A stretch of DNA of 34,157 nt from Candidatus Scalinduaceae bacterium (GCA_046759445.1 JBHICG010000035.1:1-34157), one strand, 5' to 3'; positions 1,552-33,874 are shown, counted from the stretch's first letter. Numbers and translations are program-made. The notes: generated by a model not told the origin, from the sequence alone.

Positions 1552-1562
1552 ATTGATTTATG

Positions 1563-1622
1563 GCAGGATTTGCATTCTCCCCCATACCCATACCATTTGC
1601 TATGTGTGGAAATGCAACCTGC
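1563..1622. repeat. Imperfect inverted repeat in the pilB-pilC spacer
   Basis: GCAGGATTTGCATTCTCC ... GGAAATGCAACCTGC. Confidence 0.5.
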
Positions 1623-1665
1623 ATTTCAGGTTATAAATATATTTTAAATTCTTATGTAAAATGTG

Positions 1666-1681
1666 AGCAAAAGTTATACCA
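1666..1681 (-). promoter_or_regulatory. Putative sigma54 (-24/-12) promoter upstream of pilC
   Basis: Minus strand TGGTATAACTTTTGCT; GG-N10-GC spacing; matches TGGCAC-N5-TTGCW with 2 mismatches. Confidence 0.5.
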
Positions 1682-1699
1682 ATATTGACGTTTAAGTAA

Positions 1700-3418: not shown

Positions 3419-3430
3419 TTCGATATTTCC

Positions 3431-15149: not shown

Positions 15150-15270
15150 TTGATATTTTTTTACTTTTCTTTGTTGGTTTGCGCAGCTATAAACTGTAAG
15201 GGCAATATGAGAATCAGAACTGTTCAACTGTTCAAACCTTTGACTTATACCAGTTGATAGGATATTGTAT

Positions 15271-15963: not shown

Positions 15964-16055
15964 TTAGTGTATGTTGCGGAATTCGATATTTACGTGCAAT
16001 TCGTAGGATTGCCTTAATAAAAATGATATTCGATTCTAACGGGTATTTGAAATAG

Positions 16056-16868: not shown

Positions 16869-17895
16869 TTTGAGGAGTGATACAGTTACCGAACCAACAT
16901 TGAAGATGCGCCAGGCCATGAAGGAAGCTGAAGTAGGAGATGACGGCTTTGGTGAAGATCCTACCACAAATAGGCTAGAGAAGATAGCTGCCGAAAAAGT
17001 GGGAAAGGAAGATGCCCTCTTTGTTTGCAGTGGTACGATGGGAAACTTAATAGCCATAATGGTACACACAAAACCAGGTGATGGAGTGATATGTGATAGA
17101 AAGGCGCACATAAATACAATGGTATCTGGAAATACAGCTGCATTGGCAGGTGTAACAACATGTCCTTTAAATGTAGATGAATTCGGTCGTTTTGATATGG
17201 AAGAACTTGAATCAAGCATTAACCTTGATGATATCCGTTTTTCTAAGACTTCGTTGATAATTATTGAAAATACAAACAACCTGGCAGGGGGGGCAGTAAT
17301 TACTCCTGACGAAACATCTAAAATAATAAAGATAGCAAAGAAAAATGGTTTACACCTTCATATAGATGGTGCAAGAATATTTAATTCTGCAGTTGCTCAG
17401 GGTGTTGAGGTGTCCGAGTTAACAAAAGGGTGTGATTCGATTATGTTTTGTATCTCTAAAGGATTAGCGTCTCCAGTAGGTTCTATAATTGCAGGTACAA
17501 AGAAATTTATAGAAGAGGCTCGATGCAAAAGGAAAATGTTAGGGGGGGGTATGAGACAGACTGGTATTTTAGCTGCTTGTGGAATAGTCTCATTAGAGGA
17601 GATGATTGATAGATTACTAGATGACCATGAAAATGCAAGATATCTTGCTGAAGGACTTGCAAGAATAGATGGTTTTAATGTTAATCTGGAGACGGTTCAG
17701 ACAAATATTGTTTGTTTCAAATTTAGATTACCAAAATTAAATTGTAAAGAGTTCGTAGAAAGTCTTTCCCCAAAAGGGATTCTTGCAGTCTATTTTAAAG
17801 GAGATGATGGTAGAATGGTAACACATAAAGATTTGAACAGATCAGACATTATTTATGCTTTAGAAGTGATTACAAACGTAGTCTCAGGATGTTAA
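16855..17895 (+). CDS. ltaE: Low-specificity L-threonine aldolase (PLP-dependent)
   Basis: Start reassigned to ATG 16855 (MRIVDLRSDTVT); SGTMGNL, HIDGARIFN, CISKGL (PLP Lys), RKMLGGGMRQ. Confidence 0.92.
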   Translation: MRIVDLRSDTVTEPTLKMRQAMKEAEVGDDGFGEDPTTNRLEKIAAEKVGKEDALFVCSGTMGNLIAIMVHTKPGDGVICDRKAHINTMVSGNTAALAGVTTCPLNVDEFGRFDMEELESSINLDDIRFSKTSLIIIENTNNLAGGAVITPDETSKIIKIAKKNGLHLHIDGARIFNSAVAQGVEVSELTKGCDSIMFCISKGLASPVGSIIAGTKKFIEEARCKRKMLGGGMRQTGILAACGIVSLEEMIDRLLDDHENARYLAEGLARIDGFNVNLETVQTNIVCFKFRLPKLNCKEFVESLSPKGILAVYFKGDDGRMVTHKDLNRSDIIYALEVITNVVSGC

Positions 17896-18050: not shown

Positions 18051-18407
18051 ATGTTAATAGCTTACTTACCGATTTTAATTATCCTAATAGTAGTAGCTGG
18101 ATTTGCCATTGCTAACATCGTAATATCTGCTCTTCTTGGCCGCCACAAGCCATCTGTAGAAAAACTATCCCCATATGAATGCGGTATAGAACCAACAGGC
18201 GCTGCAAGGGAAAGGTTTTCTGTAAAGTTTTATTTAATAGCTATGATGTTTGTTATCTTCGATATTGAAGTTGTATTTCTTTATCCGTGGGCGGTTGTGT
18301 TCAAGTCGTTACAACTATTTGGCTTAATTGAAATGGCAATATTCATAATAATCTTGCTGATTTGCTATGTGTATATCTGGAAAAGAGGTGGATTTGAATG
18401 GGATTAG
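18051..18407 (+). CDS. nuoA: NADH-quinone oxidoreductase subunit A
   Basis: [29 protein letters not shown]. Confidence 0.97.
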
Positions 18408-18883
18408 AAACAGCATTTAGTGATAGTATTCTTACGACAACGGTTGACAAGGTGGTTAATTGGGCCAGAAAAAATGCACTTTGGCCAATGCCTTTCGGAT
18501 TGGCATGTTGTGCAATTGAGATGATGGCTGTAGTAGCGCCAAGATATGATCTGGCTAGATTTGGCGCCGAGGTCTTTAGGTTTTCACCGCGTCAGTCTGA
18601 TTTGATGATAATCGCTGGTACAGTGACTTATAAAATGGCAGCCGTGACGAAGAAGATTTATGACCAGATGCCTGAACCAAAATGGGTAATTGCAATGGGG
18701 GCATGTGCTTCTTCTGGTGGTATTTTTGATACTTATAGTACCGTACAGGGAGTGGATCAAATTATTCCCGTTGATATATACTTGCCGGGATGTCCACCAA
18801 GGCCAGAAGCCTTAATTCATGCAGTGATGGAATTACAAAAGAAAATTGACAAAGAATCTGTTTTGGATAACGGAGCTAAGTAA
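18398..18883 (+). CDS. nuoB: NADH-quinone oxidoreductase subunit B (N2 cluster)
   Basis: [32 protein letters not shown]. Confidence 0.97.
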
Positions 18884-18969
18884 ATCCCCCTCATTCCCCC
18901 TTTTTTAAAGGGGGGGGAGGAAGGGGGATTTAACCCATTTTATAAAGGGGGATAGGATATGGGGGATTT
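18881..18969. repeat. C/G-run palindromic REP-like element (family A, copy 2 plus partial copy 3)
   Basis: TAAATCCCCCT-CATT-CCCCCTTTTTTAAAGGGGGGGG-AGGA-AGGGGGATTTA followed by CCCATTTTATAAAGGGGGATAGGATATGGGGGATTT. Confidence 0.8.
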
Positions 18970-18999
18970 GTTAACTTACTTTTTACTATTTTAATTACT

Positions 19000-19506
19000 A
19001 TGACTGAAGAGAACATAATAGAAAAAAACTTAAGAGAGAAATTTCCTGAATCAATATTGGATGTTGAAACTTTTAGAGATGAATTAACCATAAATATAGA
19101 AAAAAATTTTATTGAAAAAGTTGCCAGGTACCTTCGGGACGATGACGAACTGTCTTTTGATTTTCTATCAGATTTGTGCGGCGTGGATAAAACGCGTCTG
19201 GGCGATAACAACACCTTTGAAGTAGTTTATCACCTCTATTCATTAAAGCGAAATCACAGGGTAAGGATTAAAGTACAGATACCTGTTTCAAATCCAACCA
19301 TCAATACTGTTACAAATGTCTGGAATACGGCTAACTGGCATGAGAGAGAGGCTTATGATATGTTTGGAATAATTTTTAAAGGTCATCCAAATTTAGAAAG
19401 AATCTTAACTCCAGATGGTTTTGAAGGACATCCCTTGAGAAAAGATTACCCTCTTAAAGGAAGACAACCAGAATCTTTAAGAGAGACATATAGAAAAGGA
19501 GAATAA
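19000..19506 (+). CDS. nuoC: NADH-quinone oxidoreductase subunit C
   Basis: DLCGVD, ANWHEREAYDMFGI, GHPLRKDYP. Confidence 0.97.
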   Translation: MTEENIIEKNLREKFPESILDVETFRDELTINIEKNFIEKVARYLRDDDELSFDFLSDLCGVDKTRLGDNNTFEVVYHLYSLKRNHRVRIKVQIPVSNPTINTVTNVWNTANWHEREAYDMFGIIFKGHPNLERILTPDGFEGHPLRKDYPLKGRQPESLRETYRKGE

Positions 19507-20681
19507 TGGCAGTAACACAACAGGTGATGACCATTAACATGGGGCCACAACACCCCAGTACACACGGTGTTTTGCGTCTCGTTTTAGAGCTGGACGGAGA
19601 GACAGTAGTTAATGTTACTACTCATGTTGGATTCCTTCACCGTGGCGTAGAAAAGCTGGCCGAACATAAGACATACCATCAATTTATTACACTTACAGAT
19701 CGTTTAGATTATCTGGCACCGATGTCTAATAATCTGGGTTATGTTCTTGCAGTAGAGAAGCTGTTGGAAATAGAAGCACCTAAAAGATCTCAATACATAA
19801 GGGTAATTCTATGTGAATTAACAAGAATCTCTTCTCATCTTTTATGGCTTGCGACACATGCCCTTGATATAGGCGCTATGACTGTGTTTTTTTATTGCTT
19901 CAGAGAAAGGGAGACTCTTTACGACATATTTGAAATGGTTTCAGGAGCGCGTATGAACCTGTCATACGTTAGGATCGGTGGTGTGGCTAGAGACTTACCA
20001 GACGGTTTTATTGAAAAGACAAAGGAATTTATTAATGATTTTCCTTCTAAATTAAAGGATTATGAGACTCTTTTAACAAAAAACAAGATTTGGTTGATGA
20101 GGACAAAAAATGTTGGAGTGATTTCTGCAGAGGATGCAATTGATTATGGATTAAGTGGGCCAAGCATAAGAGGTTCTGGTGTGAAGTGGGATATAAGAAA
20201 ATCAGAGCCTTATTCTTCGTACGATGAATTGGATTTTATAGTGCCTGTCGGTAAAAACGGTGATGTGTTTGATAGGTATATGGTTAGAATTGAAGAAATG
20301 CGTCAGAGCAATGAGATTGTGCGCCAGGCCATAGACAATTTACCTTCAGGTAAATTTATTACGGATGTTCCTGATGTTACGCTTCCTCCGAAAGAAGAAC
20401 TTAAAAGCAGTATGGAATCTTTAATACACCACTTCAAAATAATAACTGATGGCATTTGTCCGCCTGTTGGTGAAGTGTATACCAGTATTGAAGCTCCCAA
20501 GGGAGAACTGGGATTTTACATAGTCAGCGACGGGACAAAAAGCCCTTATAGATTAAAAATTAGACCGCCTTCTTTTGTTAACTTAGAGGCGCTTCAAAAG
20601 ATGGTAGAAGGTCATTTGATTGCTGATGTGGTTGCCGTAATTGGAAGCATAGATATAGTGTTAGGAGAAATTGATCGTTAA
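19506..20681 (+). CDS. nuoD: NADH-quinone oxidoreductase subunit D
   Basis: NMGPQHPSTHGVLRL, RLDY, EAPKGELG, DIVLGEIDR; no NiFe CxxC motifs. Confidence 0.97.
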   Translation: MAVTQQVMTINMGPQHPSTHGVLRLVLELDGETVVNVTTHVGFLHRGVEKLAEHKTYHQFITLTDRLDYLAPMSNNLGYVLAVEKLLEIEAPKRSQYIRVILCELTRISSHLLWLATHALDIGAMTVFFYCFRERETLYDIFEMVSGARMNLSYVRIGGVARDLPDGFIEKTKEFINDFPSKLKDYETLLTKNKIWLMRTKNVGVISAEDAIDYGLSGPSIRGSGVKWDIRKSEPYSSYDELDFIVPVGKNGDVFDRYMVRIEEMRQSNEIVRQAIDNLPSGKFITDVPDVTLPPKEELKSSMESLIHHFKIITDGICPPVGEVYTSIEAPKGELGFYIVSDGTKSPYRLKIRPPSFVNLEALQKMVEGHLIADVVAVIGSIDIVLGEIDR

Positions 20682-20702
20682 CAATTTTAAGATTGCGAGA
20701 AT

Positions 20703-21206
20703 ATGGATACAACAAGCATACAATCAGTGCAGGATGAGACAGTAGATTTTTCCAAGGTAAAAAAGACACTGAAAAACTATGAAAATGTTAATGGGGCCCT
20801 AATCCCTATTTTGCAAAAGATACAGGCTGAATATGGCTATTTACAGGAACCTGTCATCAACTTTATTTCAGAAAGTTTAAATATCAGTGTTACCGAAATT
20901 ATTGGAGTTGCCACATTTTATGCTCAATTTCATTTAAAGCCGCGTGGGAAACATATAATTAAGGTATGTTGTGGAACGGCATGTCATGTCAAAAAGGCCA
21001 AAGGTCTTTCTGCAAAAATTCAGGAAAGGTTCAAGATAAATAAGAATGAAACTACAGAGGATAGGATGTTTACCTTTGAAGAAGTATCTTGTCTGGGAGC
21101 ATGTGGGATAGCTCCAGTTGTTGTAGTTGATAAGGATGTCCACGGCACTCTATCTCCTGATAAACTAGAAGGTATCCTGGATGGATACACGAAGCCTGCG
21201 GTGTAA
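20703..21206 (+). CDS. nuoE: NuoE / HydC-like [2Fe-2S] subunit
   Basis: LIPILQKIQAEYGYL, ATFY, CCGTACHV and CLGAC. Confidence 0.93.
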   Translation: MDTTSIQSVQDETVDFSKVKKTLKNYENVNGALIPILQKIQAEYGYLQEPVINFISESLNISVTEIIGVATFYAQFHLKPRGKHIIKVCCGTACHVKKAKGLSAKIQERFKINKNETTEDRMFTFEEVSCLGACGIAPVVVVDKDVHGTLSPDKLEGILDGYTKPAV

Positions 21207-21278
21207 ACAGGCAATTAGTTATTTAAGCTCATATATAAATAATGATGTTAATAATATGTTAGTTTTCGGAAAGATAAA

Positions 21279-23099
21279 ATGAGTAGTAGAACAAAAAGTT
21301 TAAAAACTAAAAGTAGTGGAAATGGAGACAAATCAGTAGTTTCCGTTTGTCTTGGAACAGGTGGAATTGCGGCTGGGGGCGATAAGGTTTTCGCAAGGTT
21401 TGAGAAAGAAATAAAGAACAAAAAACTGGATACGACCATAGGGAAACGTGTGTGTAAAACAGCAAAGACAGGTTGTAGGGGTTTGTGCGCCAAAGATGTT
21501 CTTGTTGATATTACAGTTCCGGGAATGGAGGCTCTTACCTACGAGAGAGTCACAGTTGACATGATACCTCAAATAGTCGAAGAACATCTGACAAAAAATA
21601 CTCCCGTAAAAAAATGGTTAGCAAAGGATGATTACCACAGATTCCATGAAAATCAACAAAGGCTTGTGCTTGGCAATTGTGGGACAATCGATCCTGAAAA
21701 CATAGATGAATATATAATAAAAGATGGATATAAAGCGCTTAAAAAAGTATTAACTAAAATGACTCCAAAAGAAGTAATAGACGAGATAAGCAAAGCTGGC
21801 CTTAGAGGTCGTGGCGGTGGTGGTTTTGAGACTGGCTGGAAATGGGAGTCATGTGCCAAATATGACGCGGATGAAAAGTATATTATTTGTAATGGTGATG
21901 AAGGTGACCCCGGGGCATTTATGGACAGAAGTATTATGGAGGGAGACCCTCATGCACTGCTGGAAGGTATGATTGTTGCAGGCTATGCCATAAGTGCTAC
22001 AAGCGGTTATATATATGTGCGTGCTGAGTATCCACTCGCTGTAGAACGATTACATATTGCGATTCGACAAGCGAAGGAAAAGGGATTTTTGGGAAAGAAT
22101 ATTCAAGGGAGTAATTATAGCCTTGATATCATAATAAAAGAAGGAGCAGGTGCCTTTGTTTGTGGCGAGTCGACTGCTTTGCAATATTCTATTGAAGGTA
22201 AACGCGGTATGCCTCGAACCCGACCTCCACAATCTGTAGAGGCAGGCTTGTGGGATAAACCAACCTGTTTGAATAACGTAGAAACATTCACAAATGTACC
22301 CATTATCATTAATAGAGGTGCGAAATGGTATTCTAATATCGGGACTGAAAAGAGTAAGGGCACAAAGATATTTGCACTTACTGGAAACGTCAAAAATACA
22401 GGCCTAATCGAGGTTCCAATGGGTATAACCATAAGAGAGATTGTATTTGACATTGGTGGCGGAATTCCGAAGAAGAAAAAATTCAAGGCCGTACAGATTG
22501 GAGGACCTTCAGGTGGTTGTTTGCCAGAATCATATCTTGATTCTCCCATAGACTTTGAATCACTACTCGAAGCTGGCGCTATGATGGGGTCCGGAAGTCT
22601 TGTTGTGGTAGATGAAACTACATGTATGGTAGATATGGCAAGATTTTTCCTTGATTTTTGCGCAAACGAATCTTGTGGTAAATGTCCTCCATGTAGGATT
22701 GGGACAACTCTTATGCTGGATATTCTCATCAGGATTACACAGGGAGAAGGTAAGGAAGAAGACCTGGATGTATTAGAGCAAATGAGTGATGAGATAATTA
22801 CTATGTCTCTTTGTGGATTAGGGCAATCGGCGCCAAATCCTGTCAAATCTACTATTAGGTATTTTCGTGATGAATATCTAGCACATATTCGAGATAAGGA
22901 ATGTCCAACAGCGACGTGTGTTGCGCTTCATAAATACACGGTTATTTCCGACAAATGCACAAAATGCATGCTTTGCGTTAAAAACTGTCCAGTGCAAGCA
23001 ATCACAGGATCACGTGACAAAGTTGCATTTATTGACAAAGAAAAATGTATTGAATGTAATCTGTGTTATGAAAAATGTAATTTTATGGCGATAAAATGA
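21279..23099 (+). CDS. nuoF: Extended NuoF / HydB-like flavoprotein (N-terminal thioredoxin-like domain, FMN/NAD(P)H site, N3, C-terminal 2x[4Fe-4S])
   Basis: 606 aa; GRGGGGF, CNGDEGDPGAFMDR, GAGAFVCGESTAL, GGPSGG, ESCGKCPPCR..SLCGLG, CTKCMLCVKNCP, CIECNLCYEKC. Confidence 0.93.
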   Translation: MSSRTKSLKTKSSGNGDKSVVSVCLGTGGIAAGGDKVFARFEKEIKNKKLDTTIGKRVCKTAKTGCRGLCAKDVLVDITVPGMEALTYERVTVDMIPQIVEEHLTKNTPVKKWLAKDDYHRFHENQQRLVLGNCGTIDPENIDEYIIKDGYKALKKVLTKMTPKEVIDEISKAGLRGRGGGGFETGWKWESCAKYDADEKYIICNGDEGDPGAFMDRSIMEGDPHALLEGMIVAGYAISATSGYIYVRAEYPLAVERLHIAIRQAKEKGFLGKNIQGSNYSLDIIIKEGAGAFVCGESTALQYSIEGKRGMPRTRPPQSVEAGLWDKPTCLNNVETFTNVPIIINRGAKWYSNIGTEKSKGTKIFALTGNVKNTGLIEVPMGITIREIVFDIGGGIPKKKKFKAVQIGGPSGGCLPESYLDSPIDFESLLEAGAMMGSGSLVVVDETTCMVDMARFFLDFCANESCGKCPPCRIGTTLMLDILIRITQGEGKEEDLDVLEQMSDEIITMSLCGLGQSAPNPVKSTIRYFRDEYLAHIRDKECPTATCVALHKYTVISDKCTKCMLCVKNCPVQAITGSRDKVAFIDKEKCIECNLCYEKCNFMAIK

Positions 23100-25738
23100 C
23101 AATGATTAATCTTAAAATTGATGATAAGGATGTGAGTGTTTCCAAAGGCACGAATATTTTTATGGCTGCAAGGAATAACGGGATCTATATTCCCGGATTA
23201 TGCTATCATCCAAAATTGACTCAGTACGGTGGGTGTAGACTTTGTATGGTTGAGGTAACTGAACGTGGAAGGACCAGGCATAGATTTTCCTGTGCACAAC
23301 CTGTATCTGAAGGAATGGAAGTAAAAACTAAAACTCCCAAGACAAAAAAGTATACGAAGTCTGTTATGGAATATCTACTGGCACACCACCCGCTAGATTG
23401 CCCAACATGCGATAAATCGGGAGAGTGCGGTCTGCAGGATGTTACGCATGATCTAAAATTATCAACAGGAAGATTTAAGACTGTAAGGATGGACGAACCG
23501 ATGAGAAGAGATAATCCTCTCTTGGAATTAAATGTAAATCGCTGTATCCTGTGTGGTAGATGTGTTAAGGTGTGTAAAGAAATTGAGGGTGTTGGCGCAA
23601 TAGATTATCAGAATAGAGGGTTTAAGACCGTTATTGGAACCGCTTTTAATAAGCCGTTGGATTGTAGTTTTTGTGGTGGTTGCGTATCAGTGTGTCCAAC
23701 AGGTTCGTGGCAGGATAGAACACTTAAATTTAGAGCCAGGCCATGGGAATTGAAAACAACATCAACGATTTGTACATACTGTGCTGTTGGATGTACTGTA
23801 GTATTAAATTCCAAGAATGATAAGGTAATGAGAATAACATCAGATGATGCTTTGGGCATAAACGAAGGTAATCTATGTGTGAAGGGGAAATTCGGCCACG
23901 AGTTTATTAATTCAAGTAGACGAGTTAAGACCCCATTAATTAGAAAGATTGGTATATTGTGTCCGACATCATGGGATGAGGCACTTGACTACGTATCAAA
24001 AAAATTCAGTGAAATCATAAACAAACATGGAGGAAAGGCACTAGGTGGTATTGGTTCTGAAAAATGTAGCAATGAAGATAATTATGTGTTTCAGAAATTC
24101 TGCAGGTCTGTGTTAGGAACTAATAATATAGATAATATGGCGAATTTAAAGTCGCCTTCGTTGAATCGATTGATTCAGTATTCTATTAAGAATGGGATTG
24201 CAACGACATCACTGGAAGAAATAGAAAACGCAGACACATTATTTTTTGTGGGGGCAGATGTAACCGAAGCGCATCCTGTGATTGGGAACATGGCGAGAAA
24301 AGCAATAAGATTGAACAAATCAAAACTAATCATTGCGAACGTAAGAAATGTTGAATTCAATAGCATCGCAAAAAAGGATGTGCGTCTTAATTATGCTATA
24401 GGTAGTCAAACCGCCTTAATTAACTCATTAATTAAGGTGATTATTGATGAAAAACTTATAGACATAAAGAAAGTTGAAAGCTCAACGGAAAATTTCAAAG
24501 AATTACGTTCCATGCTAAAAACATTTGCTATAAAGAAGGCGTCTAAATTAACGAATGTTCCTGAAGATAGCATAAAAAGAGCGTCTGTTTTATTAACAGA
24601 ACATGGAAATTGTTATATTATCTGTGGCAAAGATATAGAGGAAGATACACATGGTGAGGATACAATTAAAGCCCTGATGAATCTTAGTGTATTGCTAAAT
24701 GCCGTTTATAGTTTAAAACCTGGTGGCGGCAGGGTCTCACTTCTGTTTTCAAGAACTAACAATAATTCTCAGGGCGTAAATGATATGGGTGTTGTTCCTG
24801 ATTTCTTACCTGGTTATCTCGATATAAATGACCCGACAAATAGAAAAAAGGTGGAAGAATCATGGGGGATGAAATTATCTGATGATGTCTATAAGAAGGA
24901 CTCTAAAGATGTTTTTGATCTTGCCTTAAGTAATAAAGTAAAAGCTTTCTATGTCATGGGAGAAAACCCCATCGTAAGTTATCCAAATGGCAAGAAGGCA
25001 AAAGAAGCCTTTCAAAAAGCCGATTTTGTAGTTGTACAGGATAACTTCCTAACTGAAACCGCACAAATTGCAGATGTTGTTCTTCCCACCTCAACGTATG
25101 CTGAAAAGGAAGGCACATTTACGAACATGGGGATGACTGTGCAACGTTTGAACAAGGCCATACAGCAGATGGGAGATTCTAAACCTGATTGGCAGATTAT
25201 ATGTGACTTAGCCAAAAAGATGGGGGATTCATACTCGTATATATCTCCTAAAGAGATTATGAGTGAAGTAGGAAATAGTGTTTCTATATATGAAGGAATT
25301 GAAAATAACAATTTGGAAAAGGAAGGTTTTCGTTGGATATCTTCAATATACAATAAATGTGAACCTGTAAAGTATAAATTTGAAATTTTCAAGTCAGAAC
25401 CTTTGATTATGAAGGAAAGCAAAAAATATCCGTTCATATTATTAACAGGTCATAGTTTAAATCATCAAGGTACTTTTTCTAGAAATTCGAGTTCTCTTGT
25501 TTCAGTTGCTTCTGAATGTTTTGTGGAAATTAATAAAAAAAATGCGCAAAAGGCAAATATCAAGGATGGAGAGATGGTAATAATTGAGTCTGCGCAGGAC
25601 AAGATAAAACTCAAGGCAAAGACCACAAGCAGAGTACCTGAAGGCGCTGTTTTTGTTTCTGAGGATTATGAGTGGGCGCCTATTAACAATTTGCGTAATA
25701 ATGGATACACAAATGTAAAAATTTCTAAGGCTTACTAA
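23096..25738 (+). CDS. nuoG: NuoG / formate dehydrogenase alpha-like Fe-S subunit lacking the catalytic Cys/Sec
   Basis: 880 aa; [2Fe-2S] C..CRLC..C; HHPLDCPTCDKSGEC; CILCGRCVKVC + CSFCGGCVSVCP; CTYCAVGC..LCVKG; molybdopterin-fold domain ADVVLP..AEKEGTFTN. Confidence 0.88.
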   Translation: MTMINLKIDDKDVSVSKGTNIFMAARNNGIYIPGLCYHPKLTQYGGCRLCMVEVTERGRTRHRFSCAQPVSEGMEVKTKTPKTKKYTKSVMEYLLAHHPLDCPTCDKSGECGLQDVTHDLKLSTGRFKTVRMDEPMRRDNPLLELNVNRCILCGRCVKVCKEIEGVGAIDYQNRGFKTVIGTAFNKPLDCSFCGGCVSVCPTGSWQDRTLKFRARPWELKTTSTICTYCAVGCTVVLNSKNDKVMRITSDDALGINEGNLCVKGKFGHEFINSSRRVKTPLIRKIGILCPTSWDEALDYVSKKFSEIINKHGGKALGGIGSEKCSNEDNYVFQKFCRSVLGTNNIDNMANLKSPSLNRLIQYSIKNGIATTSLEEIENADTLFFVGADVTEAHPVIGNMARKAIRLNKSKLIIANVRNVEFNSIAKKDVRLNYAIGSQTALINSLIKVIIDEKLIDIKKVESSTENFKELRSMLKTFAIKKASKLTNVPEDSIKRASVLLTEHGNCYIICGKDIEEDTHGEDTIKALMNLSVLLNAVYSLKPGGGRVSLLFSRTNNNSQGVNDMGVVPDFLPGYLDINDPTNRKKVEESWGMKLSDDVYKKDSKDVFDLALSNKVKAFYVMGENPIVSYPNGKKAKEAFQKADFVVVQDNFLTETAQIADVVLPTSTYAEKEGTFTNMGMTVQRLNKAIQQMGDSKPDWQIICDLAKKMGDSYSYISPKEIMSEVGNSVSIYEGIENNNLEKEGFRWISSIYNKCEPVKYKFEIFKSEPLIMKESKKYPFILLTGHSLNHQGTFSRNSSSLVSVASECFVEINKKNAQKANIKDGEMVIIESAQDKIKLKAKTTSRVPEGAVFVSEDYEWAPINNLRNNGYTNVKISKAY

Positions 25739-25744
25739 TAATAA

Positions 25745-26026
25745 ATGGGAAATAAAGGACAAACATATTTTTGTGAAATTTGCAGACAAAAGGTAGAGGT
25801 TGTTGAAGATGGTTTTGGAGTGCTTGTATGCTGTGGTGAAGAGATGAAGCTGGTTGGAGAAAAAGGTATGATGGCTACCTGGACATCAGCACATCCTAAG
25901 CCAGATGGAGGTGTGATTTATGTCTGCAATGAATGTGGCCAGAAGATAAGGGTTGTGGAAGAAACTACTGGCATATTGGAATGTTGTGGCCAAAGAATGC
26001 AACGCAATGAGGTAGGTGTCAACTAA
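25745..26026 (+). CDS. Tandem (two-domain) desulforedoxin-like Fe(Cys)4 protein
   Basis: YFCEICRQKVEVVEDGFGVLVCCGEEM and YVCNECGQKIRVVEETTGILECCGQRM, two CxxC-x15-CC motifs; starts 6 nt after the nuoG stop. Confidence 0.88.
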   Translation: MGNKGQTYFCEICRQKVEVVEDGFGVLVCCGEEMKLVGEKGMMATWTSAHPKPDGGVIYVCNECGQKIRVVEETTGILECCGQRMQRNEVGVN

Positions 26027-26135
26027 TTGGGGAAATGTTTTGGAGATTCTGTAGCCGTATTGGGCGGGCCTACATGATCGGGAATCTATTTTCGGATCAA
26101 AATGCAATAAATTTGTGACCAACGGGAGCTAATTT

Positions 26136-27128
26136 ATGTTAGACGCGATTATATTCACTATAATTGCAACGATTAAGATAGCCATAGTCATTGGTTTACT
26201 CCTTATTGCCATTGCGTATCTTATATGGGTAGAACGCAAAGTCATGGCTCATATGCAGGTAAGACTTGGACCTATGAGAGTAGGATGGCATGGTTTGCTA
26301 CAGCCCATAGCAGACGGACTCAAATTAATATTCAAGGAAGACATCATCCCGACTAATGCTGATAAGACTATATTCGTGCTTGCACCAGTAATAGCTACTG
26401 TTCCAGCACTCATGACGTTTGCTGTTATTCCTTTTGGAGATAAGATAAGCATAATGGGACTTAATATTGATATGGTCATAACAGACGTGAATATAGGCAT
26501 ACTTTACATCCTTGCAATTACGTCTATGGGTGTTTATGGCGTTGTATTAGCAGGATGGTCCTCAAATAATAAATATTCTTTATTGGGTGGATTGAGGTCT
26601 GCTGCGCAGATGATTAGCTATGAGCTTTCACTAGGTCTTGCGCTGATAGGTGTCCTCATGATTACACAATCACTGAGCCTTGTTGACATTGTAAATGCGC
26701 AAGCCAAATGCTGGTTTGTAATATTACAGCCTATAGGTTTTCTTATATATGCCATAAGCGCCATTGCTGAAGTAAACAGATGCCCGTTTGATTTGCCAGA
26801 AGCGGAGACAGAACTGGTTGCAGGATTCCATACCGAATACAGCAGCATGAAGTTTGCCCTTTTCTTCATGGCTGAATATGCCAATATCGTAACTGTTTCT
26901 GCTATTGCCGTTACTTTCTTCTTTGGTGGATGGAGAGGCCCATTCCTCCCGCCTGTGGTTTGGTTTTTAATCAAGTTAGCTCTGTGCATATTCTTTTTTA
27001 TATGGTTAAGGTCTACATATCCTAGATTTAGATATGATCAGCTAATGAAATTTGGGTGGAAATTCCTACTGCCTGTTGCCTTAGCAAATATCCTGCTTAC
27101 AGGATTGGTAATGGTCTTGATACAGTAA
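26136..27128 (+). CDS. nuoH: NADH-quinone oxidoreductase subunit H
   Basis: [52 protein letters not shown]. Confidence 0.97.
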
Positions 27129-27153
27129 TTTGTGATATTTTGAGGAAATTTAA

Positions 27154-27573
27154 ATGATAAAACCATTGATTCAGGGTTTAGCGCTTACATTGAAACATTT
27201 TTTAAGACCATCCAAGGTCATCACAATGCAATATCCTGATGAAAGATGGACGCCTTATCCACGTTTTAGGGGGTTGCATGAATTACAGAGGGATGAAAAT
27301 GGCAAGGAGAAATGTGTGGCGTGTGGACTTTGTTCGACAGTTTGTCCCGCAGAGTGTATTTCTATCGAAGGCACAGAAAATGAGCAAGGAGAACGGTACG
27401 CAGAGGTTTATGAAATAAATATGCTCAGATGTATTTTTTGCGGATATTGCGAGGAAGTATGTCCTGAGGATGCCATCTTCTTAAGACAAAATTACGAGCT
27501 GGCTTCTGAAGACTTAAAAGACCATATTTATACAAAAGAAAAGTTACTGGTTCCTTTAAGGAAAAACAAATAA
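27154..27573 (+). CDS. nuoI: NADH-quinone oxidoreductase subunit I
   Basis: CVACGLCSTVCP and CIFCGYCEEVCP. Confidence 0.97.
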   Translation: MIKPLIQGLALTLKHFLRPSKVITMQYPDERWTPYPRFRGLHELQRDENGKEKCVACGLCSTVCPAECISIEGTENEQGERYAEVYEINMLRCIFCGYCEEVCPEDAIFLRQNYELASEDLKDHIYTKEKLLVPLRKNK

Positions 27574-27587
27574 ATTAAGGTATTTCC

Positions 27588-28106
27588 ATGTTAGAAGGCT
27601 TGTTGTTCATAATAGTAGGTTTAATAGCAGTTATTTGCGCTATTTGCGTAGTCGCCCAAAAGAGTCCTCTATATAGCGGAATCTTTCTGATTCAAACCAT
27701 GGTTTCCCTGGCAGTTTTGTACGTTATGTTACATGCACAATTTGTCGCTGCTATACAAATAATGATATATGCTGGTGCAATAATGGTGCTTTTTATTTTT
27801 GTAATAATGTTGCTTAACCTAAGCAAAGAAGACGTGGAGGCCGGCAGGGATAGGTTAATACTTCATAGGGTCTCTGCCATCTTTTTAGGTATTATTTTGT
27901 TTGCAGTGATTGGAGTTGTAGCGTTGAAAACAACGCTCCTGGGTGCTAAGGGTGAGTATATGCCTGAAAATATAAACCTGATAGGGAATACACAACTTAT
28001 AGGAAAATTACTATTTACGGACTACGTTTTCCCTTTTGAGATTGCTTCTATCTTGTTGTTTGCCGCTATTATTGGTGCTATTGTTTTGGCAAAAAGGGAA
28101 TTTTAG
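27588..28106 (+). CDS. nuoJ: NADH-quinone oxidoreductase subunit J
   Basis: QIMIYAGAIMVLFIFVIMLL, FPFEIASILL. Confidence 0.97.
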   Translation: MLEGLLFIIVGLIAVICAICVVAQKSPLYSGIFLIQTMVSLAVLYVMLHAQFVAAIQIMIYAGAIMVLFIFVIMLLNLSKEDVEAGRDRLILHRVSAIFLGIILFAVIGVVALKTTLLGAKGEYMPENINLIGNTQLIGKLLFTDYVFPFEIASILLFAAIIGAIVLAKREF

Positions 28107-28116
28107 GAAAAAATAA

Positions 28117-28419
28117 ATGATTCCATTATCTTGGTATTTAATATTATCTGGTATTCTCTTTACGATAGGAGTGATAGGTGTTTTAACTAAAAGAAATGCC
28201 ATTGTTATCTTTATGTGCATTGAATTGATGTTAAATGCCGTAAACTTGTCCTTTGTTGCGTTTTCCAGACACTTAAACTCAATGGATGGCCAAATATTTG
28301 TCTTCTTTATAATGACTGTTGCTGCCGCGGAAGCTGCAGTAGGATTGGCAATAATAGTGGCTGTTTTCAGAAATAAGGCCACTGTAAATGTTGATGATGT
28401 AAATTTGATGAAGTGGTAA
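28117..28419 (+). CDS. nuoK: NADH-quinone oxidoreductase subunit K
   Basis: [22 protein letters not shown]. Confidence 0.97.
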
Positions 28420-28458
28420 TGTGATAAATAAAGTACAAATTTTCATTGGAGAATTATT

Positions 28459-30375
28459 TTGGATTTAATCGGTTATGTCTTATTATTCCCCATTATAGGG
28501 ACAATAATAAACGGGCTTCTGGGTAAAAGGCTTAATACGTCAATAGTCGGCATTATAGCGTGCGCTGCAATTGGATTGTCATTTCTTGTGTCAATTATCG
28601 TGTTCTTAGATCTTCTAAAACTACCTCCCGAACACCGACTTATAGAAAAGGAATTTTTTACATGGATTGGTTCTGGCGCATTTAAGGCAGTTGCTGGTTT
28701 GCAGATAGATCCGCTTTCAACAGTGATGATATTGGTTGTTTCGGGTGTTGGGTTTCTCATTCACATATACTCGGTAGGATATATGCACGGTGATGAAGGA
28801 TATTATCGTTATTTTACTTATCTGAACTTGTTTACCTTTTCTATGTTGTTACTGGTGTTGGCGAATAATTTCCTTCTTATGTTTATTGGATGGGAAGGCG
28901 TTGGTTTGTGTTCATACTTGTTGATTGGTTACTGGTTTGAAAAGAAATCGGCATCTGATGCCGGAATGAAGGCCTTTATCGTAAACCGTATCGGGGATTT
29001 TGGTTTTATTCTTGCCATAATGTTGATTTTTGTCACATTCAATACTATAGATTTTACAGATGTCTTTAATGCAGCGCCTGAATATTTACATGTGGGTAGC
29101 TTTGTTGCAACAATGATTACTCTCCTATTGTTTGTGGGAGCTGTTGGGAAATCTGCGCAAATACCCCTTCATACCTGGCTTCCCGATGCAATGGAGGGTC
29201 CTACTCCTGTCAGCGCGCTCATTCACGCTGCAACAATGGTAACGGCTGGTGTATACATGGTTGTAAGATGTAATGTCTTATATATGCTAGCGCCTTTTTC
29301 GCTAACGATTGTGGCCATAATAGGGGGTGTAACTGCATTGTTTGCCGCAACGATTGGCCTTGCGCAGAATGATATTAAAAGGGTTCTTGCGTATTCTACG
29401 GTAAGTCAAATAGGATATATGTTTCTTGCTTGTGGTGTGGGAGCCTTTATAACTGGAATATTTCATCTGGTCACACACGCATTTTTCAAGGCCTTACTCT
29501 TTCTGGGTTCAGGTAGTGTAATTCATGCATTAGGTGGTGAGCAGGATATGAGAAAGATGGGCGGGTTAAGACCGCATCTACCAACAACATATAAGACATT
29601 TCTGATTGGCACTCTGGCAATAGCAGGGATACCACCATTTGCAGGATTCTTTAGTAAAGATGAAATATTGCTTGAGGCGTTTACCAAGGGGAATTTGATT
29701 TACTGGTGTTTGGGAGCTTTTGCGGCAATTTTAACGGCCTTTTATATGTTCAGACTGCTTTTTATGACTTTCCATGGAAAATCAAATATGGACAAACATG
29801 TGGAAGAGCACGTCCATGAATCACCTATGAATATATTAATACCATTACTGGTTCTTGCCTTTCTTTCCATAGTAGGTGGATTTCTTGGCTTTCCAGCAGC
29901 AAGTGCCATAAACGATTTTATGGCGCCGGTCATTGGAGGTGGCGCACATGGAATGGTTGATGGTGGTGAAGTGCATCACGTTTCTAACAGTCTTATGTTT
30001 TCAATGATGGCAATTTCAACTGCTATTGCATTAGTGGGTATATTTCTGGCATACTTGATGTACATAAAAAAACCTGATTTGCCAGCAAAAATAGTTGAGA
30101 AGTTTAAGTTAATTTATAACATAATCTTCAATAAATATTATGTTGATGAAATATATGATGCGGCAATCGTAAATCCTACCGTAAAGAGTTCCTTTTTTCT
30201 TTGGAAAATAGTCGATGTGAGGATTATTGATGGTTCTGTAAACGGAGTTGCCAGGATTGTTGAATTTATAAGCAAAGTATTAAGGCTTTTCCAGACTGGG
30301 TATGTGCGTAGCTATGCATTGTCGATGTTGCTCGGAGGAGTTATCATAATAGTTTGTTCATTGTTATTTTTATAA
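28459..30375 (+). CDS. nuoL: NADH-quinone oxidoreductase subunit L
   Basis: TTG start with GGAG RBS; GWEGVGLCSY, KSAQIPLHTWLPDAMEGPTPVSALIHAATMV, HAFFKALLF. Confidence 0.97.
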   Translation: MDLIGYVLLFPIIGTIINGLLGKRLNTSIVGIIACAAIGLSFLVSIIVFLDLLKLPPEHRLIEKEFFTWIGSGAFKAVAGLQIDPLSTVMILVVSGVGFLIHIYSVGYMHGDEGYYRYFTYLNLFTFSMLLLVLANNFLLMFIGWEGVGLCSYLLIGYWFEKKSASDAGMKAFIVNRIGDFGFILAIMLIFVTFNTIDFTDVFNAAPEYLHVGSFVATMITLLLFVGAVGKSAQIPLHTWLPDAMEGPTPVSALIHAATMVTAGVYMVVRCNVLYMLAPFSLTIVAIIGGVTALFAATIGLAQNDIKRVLAYSTVSQIGYMFLACGVGAFITGIFHLVTHAFFKALLFLGSGSVIHALGGEQDMRKMGGLRPHLPTTYKTFLIGTLAIAGIPPFAGFFSKDEILLEAFTKGNLIYWCLGAFAAILTAFYMFRLLFMTFHGKSNMDKHVEEHVHESPMNILIPLLVLAFLSIVGGFLGFPAASAINDFMAPVIGGGAHGMVDGGEVHHVSNSLMFSMMAISTAIALVGIFLAYLMYIKKPDLPAKIVEKFKLIYNIIFNKYYVDEIYDAAIVNPTVKSSFFLWKIVDVRIIDGSVNGVARIVEFISKVLRLFQTGYVRSYALSMLLGGVIIIVCSLLFL

Positions 30376-30383
30376 ATTAGTAT

Positions 30384-30666
30384 CTGTTGCGGAAACGCGG
30401 TTTTGTCATCCTGAACTTGTTTCAGGATCTCTTAACATATTGATACATATAAATTCTGACCCCCATAGCCCCGCATCTTGCTTTCAGCAAGAAAGCAGCG
30501 GGGCTAGGAATGGGGGCAGAATGACACGTTCGGGGATTCAGGGTGTAGTTTCTACTCGCAGAGTAGAATTACCTAAGCAATGCCGCTGTTGCGGAATTTC
30601 CAATGGTATTATACTATCTGTCATTCCCGTGGTAATGCCCGCATGGTAAGCAAACAGGGAATCTAG
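30384..30666. repeat. Composite REP/MITE-like cluster in the nuoL-nuoM spacer
   Basis: CTGTTGCGGAA at 30384 and 30586; TGTCATCCTGAACTTGTTTCAGGATCT 30404-30430; nested hairpin 30453-30526 ending ATGACA; TTCTACTC/GAGTAGAA 30550-30568; TGTCATTCCC...GGGAATCTAG 30619-30666. Confidence 0.8.
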
Positions 30667-30790
30667 ATTTCAAGATTCGTGGTGCTACAAAAGTGACAAG
30701 AGCATTTTGATTTGTATAATGAAATACAGGTAAAAAAAATATTTTATTTTTCGTGTAAACATTCGATAAGCCCGTTAAAACAATAAATAT

Positions 30791-32362
30791 ATGAACTTAC
30801 CAATACTTACTATAGCTACGTTTTTGCCACTGTTAGGAGCAATATGGCTTCTTTTTGTAGATAGAGGAAAAGAAGAAGAGATCAAGCGTATTGCCCTTGT
30901 TACTGCCATTGTCGGTTTCTTAATATCATTACCCTTATTCTTCAAATTCAATTTAAATACACATGAATTTCAATTTGTAGAAAAGGTTCCGTGGATAAAG
31001 GAATTTGGAATAAGTTACTATGTAGGTATTGATGGTATAAGTCTTTTTCTGTATCTCCTCACAAGCTTCCTTACAGTCATCTCAATCCTGGCATCATGGA
31101 CCATAAAGGATAGAATCAAAGAATATATGATTTCCATGCTTGTTTTGGAAACAGGGATGTTGGGAGTTTTCATCTCTCTTGATTTGTTCTTGTTTTATGT
31201 ATTCTGGGAGGTAATGCTTATCCCGATGTACCTGTTGATAGGTGTATGGGGTGGGCCGAGAAAGATTTATGCTACCATAAAGTTTTTTATATATACTATG
31301 GCCGGGAGTGTCTTGATGCTGCTTGCCATATTGGTGATTTATTTTATGAATTACAGGGTCACAGGTGAATACACGTTTGATTTACTGAAGATTTATAATC
31401 TTGACATACCTATGGGGGCCCAGTTCTGGCTCTTTTTAGCATTCTTTTTTGCCTTCGCCATTAAGGTTCCAATGTTTCCATTTCATACGTGGTTACCTGA
31501 TGCACACGTAGAGGCGCCTACTGCCGGAAGCGTTATTTTGGCAGGAGTATTGTTGAAAATGGGCACTTATGGTTTTGTCCGCTTCAGTTTACCACTGTTC
31601 CCATATGCAAGTCATCAGTTTGTACCTGTAATTGCATGGTTGGCTATCGTTGGAATCATATATGGTGCACTTGTAGCAATGGTACAGGAAGATCTCAAAA
31701 AATTAGTCGCCTATTCCAGTGTAAGCCATTTGGGTTTTGTGATGCTCGGTATATTTGTTTTTAATATACAGGGGATGGAGGGCAGCATTCTTCAGATGAT
31801 TAATCATGGCCTGAGCACTGGCGCATTGTTCTTGCTTGTCGGAATGATATATGAAAGAAGACATACCAGGATGATTGTCGATTTTGGTGGTCTGACAAAA
31901 CAAATACCAATATTTGCAGTCTTTTTTATGATAATGACACTATCTTCGATAGGGTTACCTGGCCTTAACGGTTTTGTAGGTGAGTTCTTAGTACTGGTCG
32001 GAGTATTTAAGTCTAATGTTATTTATGCTACTTTAGCAACTACCGGTGTTATATTGTCGGCATGTTACATGCTCTGGATGTTCCAGAGAGTTATGTTTAA
32101 TAAACTTTCTAATCCTGAAAATCAAAAACTTTCAGACCTGAATAAACGTGAATGGGCAGTATTATTGCCAATTACTATACTTGTTTTTTGGATTGGTATT
32201 TATCCAAAACCTATCATTTCCAGAATGGATGCGTCTGTAAATCACCTCTTAACGCAGGTGGATGAGAAATATAAAATAACCTTAAACCGGATTGAAAAGG
32301 ATAAAGCTAAATACGCACTTAGAAACGAGACAGCAACACTTACTCAATATCAAGAGGATTGA
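30791..32362 (+). CDS. nuoM: NADH-quinone oxidoreductase subunit M
   Basis: [56 protein letters not shown]. Confidence 0.97.
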
Positions 32363-32374
32363 AAAAGATGTAGC

Positions 32375-32407
32375 GAAGGCGTGCAATCATAGATTGCCTA
32401 AGCCTTC
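32375..32407. repeat. Small hairpin (possible degenerate GTAG-type REP) in the nuoM-nuoN spacer
   Basis: GAAGGC-GT-GCAATC-ATA-GATTGC-CTAA-GCCTTC, preceded by GTAGC. Confidence 0.45.
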
Positions 32408-32422
32408 CATAATCGAAATATT

Positions 32423-33874
32423 ATGGAAATAACAATACCACCATTTGATTTTAAAAGTATTACACCAATTCTTATTATAACCATCACCGGCTTATTGGTA
32501 CTCATTGCAGATGTGTTTTTCAAGAGGGCCTTAAGGGACAAGCTGGCATACTTAAGCTTAATTGGTATTATTATAACGGGTCTTGTTCTTTTTACTCAAA
32601 TAGGTACAACCGTATACTCGTTCAGTGACACATTTGTTGTAGATAATTTCTCCATATTTTTTAATTTTATATTTCTGATTAGTACGGCCATCGTTATCCT
32701 TATGTCAGTGAGCTATATAAAACAGGAAGATATTAACTATGGAGAATACTATACCCTGATATTGTTTGCTACAATGGGCATGATGCTGATGGCAGGCGGT
32801 TCAGACTTAATTACGATATTTCTGGGACTTGAAATAATGTCCATTTCGCTTTATGTGCTGGCGGGTTTCAGGCGTAAACGAATTGATTCTAATGAGGCGG
32901 CTTTGAAATATTTTTTGCTGGGAGCCTTTGCCACAGGCTTTCTTCTCTACGGCATTGCAATGTTATATGGGGCGACAGGTACTACGAATGTCAAAGAGAT
33001 TGCAATGTTTCTGGCAAACAATCCGCCACTATCAAATCCTATGGTTATTACGGGGACTGCCCTGCTTATTATAGGTTTTGGATTTAAGGTTGCTACTGTG
33101 CCATTTCATAAGTGGACTCCCGATGTTTACGAAGGAGCGCCCACGGCAATTACGGCATTTTTGTCTGTAGGGCCAAAGGCCGCTGCATTTGCGGCATTCC
33201 TCAGGGTATTTTTAGTATCACTGTCTGGTTTAGAGCAAAAGTGGTCCATAATCTTGTGGGTGCTGGCGGTCCTTACGATGACGGTTGGAAATGTTGTTGC
33301 CATTGCTCAAACCAACATAAAAAGGATGCTGGCATATTCCAGTATAGCTCATGCCGGTTATGCGCTTATTGCTATTGTTGTTGCAAATAGTTTTGGAACT
33401 GCAAGCATGCTCTTCTATATGTTAGCTTATACTTTTATGAATCTGGGAGCATTTGCCGTAGTAATCGTACTCGGGAAGAAAGGGGAGGAAAACGTTATGA
33501 TTGATGACTACAGTGGTCTCGGCTACAAACATCCTCTTTTAGCAATAACAATGAGTATCTTTATGTTTTCCCTGGCCGGCATACCTCCATTAGCGGGGTT
33601 TGTAGGGAAATTTTACATCTTTAGCGCTGCCATCAAATCGGGCTTTATTGTCCTGGCTGTTATAGGGGTGATTAATAGTGTTGTTTCAGTCTATTATTAT
33701 TTAAGAGTTACAGTTGTCATGTACATGAAACAACCTGTGCGCGAATTTGCACCGCTTTCACTCACACCGTTTATGATTGTTGCCCTCATAATATCAATCT
33801 GGGGTACTATCCATCTGGGCATATTTCCTGCAAGGATAATAGATTTCGCCCAAAAATCTACACTTCTATATTAA
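32423..33874 (+). CDS. nuoN: NADH-quinone oxidoreductase subunit N
   Basis: EAALKYFLLG, FKVATVPFHKWTPDVYEGAPT, KRMLAYSSIAH, SLAGIPPLAGFVGKF. Confidence 0.97.
   Translation: MEITIPPFDFKSITPILIITITGLLVLIADVFFKRALRDKLAYLSLIGIIITGLVLFTQIGTTVYSFSDTFVVDNFSIFFNFIFLISTAIVILMSVSYIKQEDINYGEYYTLILFATMGMMLMAGGSDLITIFLGLEIMSISLYVLAGFRRKRIDSNEAALKYFLLGAFATGFLLYGIAMLYGATGTTNVKEIAMFLANNPPLSNPMVITGTALLIIGFGFKVATVPFHKWTPDVYEGAPTAITAFLSVGPKAAAFAAFLRVFLVSLSGLEQKWSIILWVLAVLTMTVGNVVAIAQTNIKRMLAYSSIAHAGYALIAIVVANSFGTASMLFYMLAYTFMNLGAFAVVIVLGKKGEENVMIDDYSGLGYKHPLLAITMSIFMFSLAGIPPLAGFVGKFYIFSAAIKSGFIVLAVIGVINSVVSVYYYLRVTVVMYMKQPVREFAPLSLTPFMIVALIISIWGTIHLGIFPARIIDFAQKSTLLY

Follow-up and report, generated by a model that had tools for sequence, protein, structure and literature searches.

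By what route do the electrons of menaquinol reach the level of NAD(P)H and ferredoxin in anammox bacteria, as the Wood-Ljungdahl pathway requires? The question is unsettled, and unusual Rieske/cytochrome b complexes have been proposed for the supply of NAD(P)H (PMC12954380). It is raised by a 34,157-nucleotide stretch of DNA from a Candidatus Scalinduaceae bacterium (GCA_046759445.1 JBHICG010000035.1:1-34157), the whole of which is termed the window, where a complex I operon, nuoA-N, occupies positions 18051-33874 of the plus strand. An earlier note on this DNA had described a proton-pumping complex I with an input module (the head, NuoEFG) of the HydABC type, and had supposed that it might, in reverse, supply low-potential electrons for CO2 fixation in an anaerobic autotroph. 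Judged from its genes, our best reading of the operon is a reversible menaquinone/NADP(H)/ferredoxin proton pump.

The host, whose genome (G000) is 97% complete, belongs to the Scalindua group of anammox bacteria. The nearest named homologues belong to Ca. Scalindua, Jettenia, Brocadia and Kuenenia, and the genome encodes hydrazine synthase (HZS) alpha, acetyl-CoA synthase (ACS) and MqnC, all scoring above their profile cut-offs, in accordance with the anaerobic autotroph that had been supposed. Fourteen intact open reading frames on the plus strand, each assigned by Pfam and NCBIfam profiles, make up the full nuoA-N set and include the only NuoB/C/D/H set of the genome. The earlier inventory was complete in this respect and overlooked a fifteenth gene, encoding a 93-residue double desulforedoxin (DX2), between nuoG and nuoH. 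The features are as follows.

18051..18407, plus strand: nuoA, 118 aa; D71/E73 correspond to E. coli D79/E81
18398..18883, plus strand: nuoB, 161 aa; N2 ligands C37, C38, C103 and C132
19000..19506, plus strand: nuoC, 168 aa; assigned by Pfam and NCBIfam
19506..20681, plus strand: nuoD, 391 aa; quinone site H16, H20, Y69 and D121
20703..21206, plus strand: nuoE (BfuC), 167 aa; C1 [2Fe-2S] ligands C89/C94/C130/C134, assigned by motif spacing
21279..23099, plus strand: nuoF (BfuB), 606 aa; B5 thioredoxin-like domain, flavin mononucleotide (FMN) domain, SLBB domain, B1, B2 and B3/B4
21348..21488, plus strand: non-canonical B5 site of NuoF; C24, G29 in place of Cys, C59, C66 and C70
22170..22232, plus strand: pocket segment of NuoF; Ser298 at the E. 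coli E183 position, Gln318 at the T. kivui R340 position
23096..25738, plus strand: nuoG (BfuA), 880 aa; five FeS motifs A1-A5 (Type 3) and a molybdopterin-fold body
25745..26026, plus strand: DX2, 93 aa; two desulforedoxin Fe(Cys)4 domains with an invariant linker; candidate NuoF partner
26136..27128, plus strand: nuoH, 330 aa
27154..27573, plus strand: nuoI, 139 aa; two [4Fe-4S] motifs
27588..28106, plus strand: nuoJ, 172 aa
28117..28419, plus strand: nuoK, 100 aa; E36/E72
28459..30375, plus strand: nuoL, 638 aa
30376..30790, no strand: nuoL-nuoM spacer, 415 bp of multi-copy genomic repeats; not a gene
30791..32362, plus strand: nuoM, 523 aa; single copy
32423..33874, plus strand: nuoN, 483 aa

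By alignment, the membrane arm and quinone module are those of an ordinary complex I, similar to the canonical enzymes of E. coli and Thermus. All the charge-relay residues checked in NuoL, M, N, K, A, H and J are kept relative to E. coli K-12 Nuo, in a comparison of letter matches, as are the four N2 Cys of NuoB and the His/His/Tyr/Asp set of NuoD; the HPSTH and RLDY motifs and the CC pair (C37-C38) singled out earlier were all located. Only one nuoM occurs in the operon and genome, which does not fit a 2M complex I, recognised by a second nuoM gene.

The head differs. At 606 residues NuoF is longer than its E. coli counterpart (445 aa, with PGTYKDR, GRYICGEET, no B2-B5 and no ferredoxin domain), and it scores 494 against the curated cut-off of 559 for the canonical NuoF model TIGR01959. 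Pfam detects a weak thioredoxin-like [2Fe-2S] match (residues 18-101), the FMN domain, SLBB, the N3/B1 domain and two C-terminal Fer4 motifs. The motifs reported earlier are all present, starting at 21909 (PGAFMDR, previously placed at 21915, which is its Ala codon), 22359 (GTKIFAL), 22500 (GGPSGG), 22617 (TTCMVD) and 22884 (HIRDKECPTATC). B1 is ligated by C466/469/472/512 and B3/B4 by eight C-terminal Cys, while the C/H/C/C site noted at TTCMVD is B2, a Zn-type site (C449/H536/C542/C547 with T487) with the His/Cys3 ligands described in PMC9304861; Zn occupies B2 in solved structures. The Cys ligands of B1-B4 are kept in 120/120 homologues and His536 is invariant in a 69-row alignment.

Comparison with known structures leads in the same direction. 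The nine best PDB sequence matches of NuoF are bifurcating B subunits, with E-values of 1e-189 or better against 1e-122 for Thermus Nqo1, and its AlphaFold model (mean pLDDT, the predicted local confidence score, 88) has ten top fold matches with TM-scores of 0.84-0.90, the best ones again being bifurcating B subunits. NfnABC/StnABC (PDB 9BOV/9BP5, 8OH5 and 9N5U) provide the best matches in both sequence and fold; in these enzymes, however, BfuB binds NAD while NADP is bound by an FAD domain within BfuA, and a membrane arm is lacking. The marks published for bifurcating beta subunits (A/E232, M234, a Phe replacing Tyr near FMN, and GGPSG; Losey 2020, PMC7311640) are found in NuoF as A213, M215, F293 and GGPSG 408-412, where the published 'F367', a Val in the PDB chain numbering, was taken as the GAF Phe (F293 here, Tyr178 in E. 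coli), the alternative F365 also being Phe. The pattern of a canonical NADH-only complex I (short NuoF, T/S-x-K, Tyr, no ferredoxin domain) is absent. NuoE carries the C1 [2Fe-2S] motif of a BfuC, and NuoG carries the five FeS motifs A1-A5, A3 included, of a Type 3 BfuA, which are kept in 21/21 loci of the anammox order (20 regions picked for long contigs and L001) and in 9/9 complete operons from Desulfobacterota. The HydABC/BfuABC-type input module is thus upheld by sequence matches, fold matches and published marks alike.

The idea of a bifurcating complex I is not new. A 14-subunit complex I with Type 3 Bfu subunits, termed Nuo-Bfu, was predicted from 51 sequences in BfuB clades 38 and 39, the latter comprising Planctomycetes and Nitrospirae, and was hypothesised to oxidise NADH and ferredoxin together and reduce menaquinone (Schut et al. 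2022, PMC9304861); among the matches listed, only that paper uses the term. Novelty of the architecture was therefore rejected. In its structural marks, with the exception of the nucleotide pocket, the operon is a Nuo-Bfu and the only complex I of its genome: it shares with the predicted family BfuABC in the middle of nuoA-N, A1-A5 of BfuA, the B1-B4 and C1 ligands and a menaquinone-using host. It departs from the published description, which proposes forward oxidation of NADH and ferredoxin, in its Ser/Gln pocket, and DX2, the two NuoF N-termini and the headless relatives described below do not occur in the excerpts of that paper. The Ser298 pocket, DX2 and headless relatives of anammox bacteria were likewise not found described in the literature searched, which leaves most subscription papers outside.

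The Desulfobacterota operons (L192-L200) show the same gene order, 56-58% NuoF identity and the same B5 variant, but they carry CGEET/PPF in 9/9 and no DX2 gene. Their 'Geobacter-type' label is our assumption, drawn in part from the published account. In trees of 70 and 57 rows, hand-chosen from the aligned set, the NuoF cores of anammox bacteria come together in a single clade (100/100) among BfuBs, for which the careful tree gives no definite sister group. Union with the Desulfobacterota group was not rejected by the approximately unbiased (AU) test (p-AU 0.67), the constrained tree scoring higher. An independent origin from NADP-type BfuBs, which a quick tree had suggested by joining them (95 in the Shimodaira-Hasegawa-like likelihood ratio test, SH-aLRT), was not sustained by the careful tree and AU test and is not claimed.

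Which nucleotide, then, does the head use? For a Nuo-Bfu, with its hypothesised NAD(H) substrate, a Glu would be expected in the pocket and NuoF has Ser298, a mark read from sequence. Ser298 and Gln318 are fixed in 41/41 anammox operon NuoFs and in the 120/120 nearest homologues. A further 138 BfuB-like rows, which are top matches and no random sample, and in which kin are not independent, have 111 Glu, 26 Ser and 1 Gly. L028, from Thermodesulfovibrionales, is the only non-anammox Ser/Gln BfuB among these rows; at this locus the opposite strand carries nuoABCDH, arranged head to head with the EFG genes.

The functional significance of this position emerges from Rhodobacter capsulatus FdsB, where Glu259 binds the ribose 2'-OH and its substitution by uncharged or basic residues confers NADP activity, as does L279R; loss of the Glu charge in E. 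coli complex I is cited as having the same effect (PMC10671435). FdsB Glu259 is structurally similar to the NuoF Ser298/E. coli E183 position, and L279 was matched to Q318 and T. kivui R340 by spacing (20 residues on). T. kivui HydB, with the pocket CGESTAL..PPRT, 'operates on NADP+', R340 stabilising bound nucleotides (PMC10021017), and C. autoethanogenum Hyt, reported as 'dependent on TPN', has CGESTAL in HytB. The alignment of Losey contains only three CGES rows (HytB twice and its C. ljungdahlii twin) against 182 CGEE and 31 CGEG occurrences, and CGEET is present in six NAD-type chains, from A. woodii, A. mobile NiFe, T. maritima and three Nfn B chains. T. kivui HydABC (PDB 8A6T) and Hyt thus resemble the anammox head in their CGEST pocket and BfuBC core; they differ in being soluble, in having a third substrate (H2 or formate) and a canonical B5, and in carrying Arg (T. 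kivui) or His (Hyt) at the Gln318 position. Since the NADP-using T. kivui enzyme is still counted as Bfu, Ser298 marks a variant of the family and not exclusion from it. On the open choice between NAD and NADP the pocket points to NADP, and we consider NADP use by the anammox head likely. A DNA pattern scan for the Ser motif performed no better than its control.

In the mechanism that we propose, the head would couple a pyridine nucleotide, in anammox bacteria probably NADP(H), and ferredoxin (Fd) in a single four-electron reaction with menaquinone (MK) and menaquinol (MKH2):

2 MKH2 + NADP+ + 2 Fd(ox) + ~8 H+ inward <-> 2 MK + NADPH + 2 Fd(red)

Electrons would pass from quinone through N2, NuoI and NuoG to B1 and FMN, where a hydride would be transferred to NADP+ while two low-potential electrons would travel via the mobile NuoE cluster to the NuoF ferredoxin domain and on to ferredoxin. 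Driven in reverse by the proton motive force (pmf), with electrons entering at menaquinol, the complex would give both anabolic reductants of the Wood-Ljungdahl pathway. The energetics were calculated with potentials from Table 1 of PMC9304861 and four protons per two electrons; MK-7 is placed near -70 mV in Kuenenia (PMC12954380). The equilibrium pmf so obtained is 158 mV for NADH/ferredoxin and 170-183 mV for NADPH/ferredoxin, as against 103-153 mV for the nucleotide alone and 188-213 mV for ferredoxin alone, so that menaquinol can reduce ferredoxin at a lower pmf when the reaction is coupled to the nucleotide. The NADPH/ferredoxin balance is close to a typical bacterial pmf, and at such a force the reaction can run either way. 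Its direction is not readable from sequence: reverse operation fits an autotroph, forward operation fits growth on formate or stored carbon, and we give reverse operation in the cell an even chance. Ferredoxin coupling by the head is rather probable, and its combination with NADP use falls a little short of even.

The head is widespread in the anammox order. A close NuoF, defined by a chosen cut-off of at least 800 bits, is encoded in 66/92 genomes, and nuoEFG lie inside nuoA-N in all 21 anammox-order and all nine complete Desulfobacterota loci. In a sample of 250 Planctomycetota, only genomes of the order itself yielded matches above 740 bits, and none of the top ten Nitrospirota matches viewed in context lies in a nuo operon; in L028, L067 and L077 BfuB adjoins nuo genes. 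Two genomes, G089 (same genus, 97% complete) and G090, carry the same nuo operon (75-94% identity) but lack both nuoEFG and DX2, with nuoD followed directly by nuoH across gaps of 222 (G089) and 47 bases (G090) that contain no N. Genome searches found no close NuoF or NuoG in either. These headless loci (L226, G089:C55, 712-3102; L230, G090:C154, 7237-9452) represent an 11-subunit complex I in anammox bacteria. Three loci examined in the family that we label f3, and a second operon in G049, encode a canonical complex I.

The fifteenth gene tracks the head. The named homologues of DX2 are all from anammox bacteria or Planctomycetota (65-89% identity), and its eight Cys and linker residues M42, W46, T47 and P53 are invariant. 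It lies in the operon in 15/21 loci, and among the genomes of the order 61 have both DX2 and head, 21 have neither, and 5 and 5 have only one (61/66 with the head carry DX2; 21/26 without it lack DX2). In some Scalindua-group genomes DX2 is relocated beside a rubredoxin-reductase-like gene and rubrerythrins; this was so in 6/7 loci fetched around DX2 matches, the seventh (L216) being a nuo operon. Such clusters, with a rubredoxin-reductase-like flavoprotein, rubredoxin/desulforedoxin proteins and two rubrerythrin-like genes, occur at L212 2632-6382 and at G000:C84:2150-7246, that on C84 carrying no DX2, and in L217 the cluster is near a fused cbb3 ccoNO gene. G089 and G090 retain the reductase-like gene. 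That DX2 is simply the carrier of this cluster was rejected: close orthologues of the reductase are confined to families f1 and f2, matches to it in family f4 reach just 28-33% and occur in 30/47 genomes as against 43/47 with DX2, and G088-G090 hold the reductase and lack both DX2 and head. A role as low-potential ferredoxin was ruled out by the Fe(Cys)4 centres, which lie near 0 mV. Rubredoxin is listed with a midpoint potential of about 0 mV (Table 1 of PMC9304861).

A complex prediction of NuoF 16-606, NuoG 1-280 and DX2, with NuoE left out, scored 0.66 for DX2 against 0.00 for the best of three controls; the score mark is reached by 116/157 solved complexes and 2/215 mismatched pairs, counts which are rough for a three-chain job. 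No less than 85% of contacts are common to the runs, the partner has a pLDDT of 72 or higher, and the DX2 linker is placed on NuoF 211-214, 366-375 and 442-460. Linker conservation was discarded as support, the interface averaging 0.80 and the rest 0.78. The model supports binding of DX2 without showing it, and binding to the head in the cell we regard as somewhat doubtful. DX2 would then serve the head as a lineage-specific partner, most probably by drawing off electrons at high potential or by acting as a gate at the seat of NuoE.

The N-terminal domain of NuoF was only partly as first described: the weak thioredoxin-like match stands, and the canonical second Cys of its B5 site is replaced by G29, the Cys present being C24, C59, C66 and C70. 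An additional Cys near position 59 is found in 63/67 aligned rows with C24 and 0/50 rows with C28, a co-occurrence that suggests a relocated ligand. The variant, C-x-GTGG..(KR)C, is common to the Desulfobacterota Nuo-Bfu, and the same relocated-Cys N-terminus, with a Glu pocket, is seen in Nitrospirota BfuBs of about 592 aa outside nuo operons (L201-L210); after most of these comes a NuoG-like protein in two pieces, of about 346 and 539 aa. Anammox NuoFs have two N-terminal types, this four-Cys type and a three-Cys GxGxC type shared with NfnABC/StnABC. Each forms one clade on the N-domain tree (91 and 94 SH-aLRT, from few columns) yet on the core tree members of the two types are intermingled, a pattern suggestive of an exchange of domains or a conversion between old paralogues. 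Full-length tandem nuoF pairs occur in 2/21 loci (L001 5740-9462 and L111 11791-15513), with one gene of each type and a Ser/Gln pocket in both, and NuoE divergence tends to track the N-terminal type.

Several points weigh against the reversible NADP(H)/ferredoxin pump. If NADPH stands at -380 mV and ferredoxin at -500 mV, reverse operation calls for a pmf above 183 mV, and for one above 244 mV when three protons move per two electrons; no measured anammox pmf was found in the literature searched. The host has other routes to its reductants, namely PntAB, a fused NfnAB-like gene and an Rnf/Nqr-like cluster; RnfC was not found above cut-off in the genome. PntAB is encoded at G000:C81:1129-3945 and the fused gene at C6:14225-16549; Kuenenia stuttgartiensis is described as having no annotated transhydrogenase. 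The residues that form the modelled DX2 site are conserved throughout the BfuBs, and the site probably coincides in part with that of the NuoE C-terminal domain, so that DX2, with NuoE absent from the prediction, may be filling an empty seat. The remaining points bear on the choice between this pump and other explanations.

The first of these is a Nuo-Bfu as Schut et al. predicted, which would confurcate NADH and reduced ferredoxin onto menaquinone and pump four protons, the Ser being neutral or simply broadening specificity. It has the published prediction on its side, with clade 39 in Planctomycetes (PMC9304861), and a real counter-example to the pocket rule: A. mobile WorB has CGESSAL, hence Ser, and is reported to reduce and bind NAD (PMC12318220), no NADP test of WorB being found in the literature searched. 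Moreover, residue 318 is Gln and not the T. kivui Arg, the Ser/Gln combination is without a characterised example, and the single mutants of R. capsulatus kept NAD activity with Km values for NADP in the millimolar range (PMC10671435), so that dual nucleotide use is possible. Nevertheless, both NADP-using BfuBs that were checked have Ser where the six NAD-type chains have Glu, and the fixed Ser/Gln of the 41 anammox sequences contrasts with the Glu/Phe of the Desulfobacterota operons. We judge this explanation unlikely.

Equally unlikely is a non-bifurcating NAD(P)H:menaquinone oxidoreductase, running forward or in reverse, in which the additional clusters would be an inherited side branch. 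No assay of any Nuo-Bfu was found in the literature searched, reverse flow to NADP alone takes just ~153 mV, and family f3 is served by a canonical complex I. The domain rules are imperfect, as illustrated by a cyanobacterial HoxF that bifurcates without a ferredoxin domain (bioRxiv 10.64898/2026.06.25.734504), and the non-canonical B5 also counts here; T. kivui HydABC cannot do without B5, although two active Nfn enzymes have Zn in its place. Against this explanation stand the eight B3/B4 Cys and the B2 Cys ligands, invariant in all 120 homologues, the presence of every Losey mark of the bifurcating type, and the fact that all close solved relatives bifurcate.

Quite improbable is that the 11-subunit core acts as a ferredoxin- or carrier-linked quinone oxidoreductase, NuoEFG being a soluble unit, loosely attached and interchangeable, that connects the pools of nucleotide and ferredoxin or else reduces DX2. 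The headless operons of G089 and G090, together with the canonical complex I of f3, imply that the head is not essential to anammox, and the two loci with different tandem nuoF genes also suit such exchange. It is opposed by the constant position of nuoEFG within the operon, by the 4-base overlap of nuoF and nuoG, and by the lack of a catalytic site for a third substrate in NuoG, which leaves the head alone with no third reaction. That NuoG is the catalytic subunit of a formate dehydrogenase (Fdh) in a formate/NAD/quinone complex can be dismissed as extremely improbable: Fdh-alpha is its best NCBIfam match, at 535 bits under a cut-off of 666, but in the alignment NuoG has NMANLKS where the Fdh-like proteins of the same genome carry their Cys/His (NCARV.H, QSETECH), and the Cys/Sec-His mark of Mo/W enzymes is missing, no Cys occurring at that position in 21 anammox-order NuoGs.

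The reversible NADP(H)/ferredoxin pump remains our preferred reading. In its full form (a 15-subunit complex I in most anammox bacteria, running in reverse as a proton-driven bifurcating menaquinol:NADP+/ferredoxin reductase that supplies both reductants of CO2 fixation, with DX2 docked at the NuoE seat and gating the head or diverting electrons to oxygen defence) it is nonetheless unlikely to hold in every part.

Some further observations concern the surroundings of the operon. Metatranscriptome contigs from two runs of one study span operon and flanks in 30/30 and 28/30 bins; such coverage, lacking a silent control, shows neither co-transcription nor expression level. A promoter and terminator scan was at chance level (58 versus 58.6). 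Short repeats, with up to 40 overlapping matches across the genome, make up the nuoL-nuoM spacer and are followed at 30693-30720 by a sigma-70-like match (11/12) from a scan that, as a whole, is at chance level. On the 5' side of nuoA the window carries trkH, trkA, a parA-like ATPase gene and a beta-eliminating lyase (threonine aldolase-like) gene (13803-17895, plus strand), with no evident link to the complex, and at 313-5128 (minus strand) a PilC/GspF gene and two tandem PilB/GspE ATPase genes with MshEN domains. Elsewhere in the host genome (G000:C50:11558-13687) there is a separate NuoE/NuoF-like pair, of 546 aa, with AFM, GGPSG, a Glu pocket, a canonical B5 and no B2-B4; no nuoG adjoins it, and two Fdh-like NuoG homologues are located on C5 and C29.

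The Ser/Gln pocket, DX2 and the headless relatives make this system a testable variant of a predicted family and not a new kind. The soluble NuoEF(G) head is open to expression and assay without an anammox culture, and the Ser/Gln heads of anammox bacteria, the Glu/Phe heads of Desulfobacterota and the headless relatives provide built-in controls. For a complex I to have a natural head of the NADP type would already be unusual and, if the proposal is true, a complex I that couples the proton gradient to the reduction of NADP+ and ferredoxin in one reaction would give anammox bacteria a direct route from menaquinol to the reductants of the Wood-Ljungdahl pathway.

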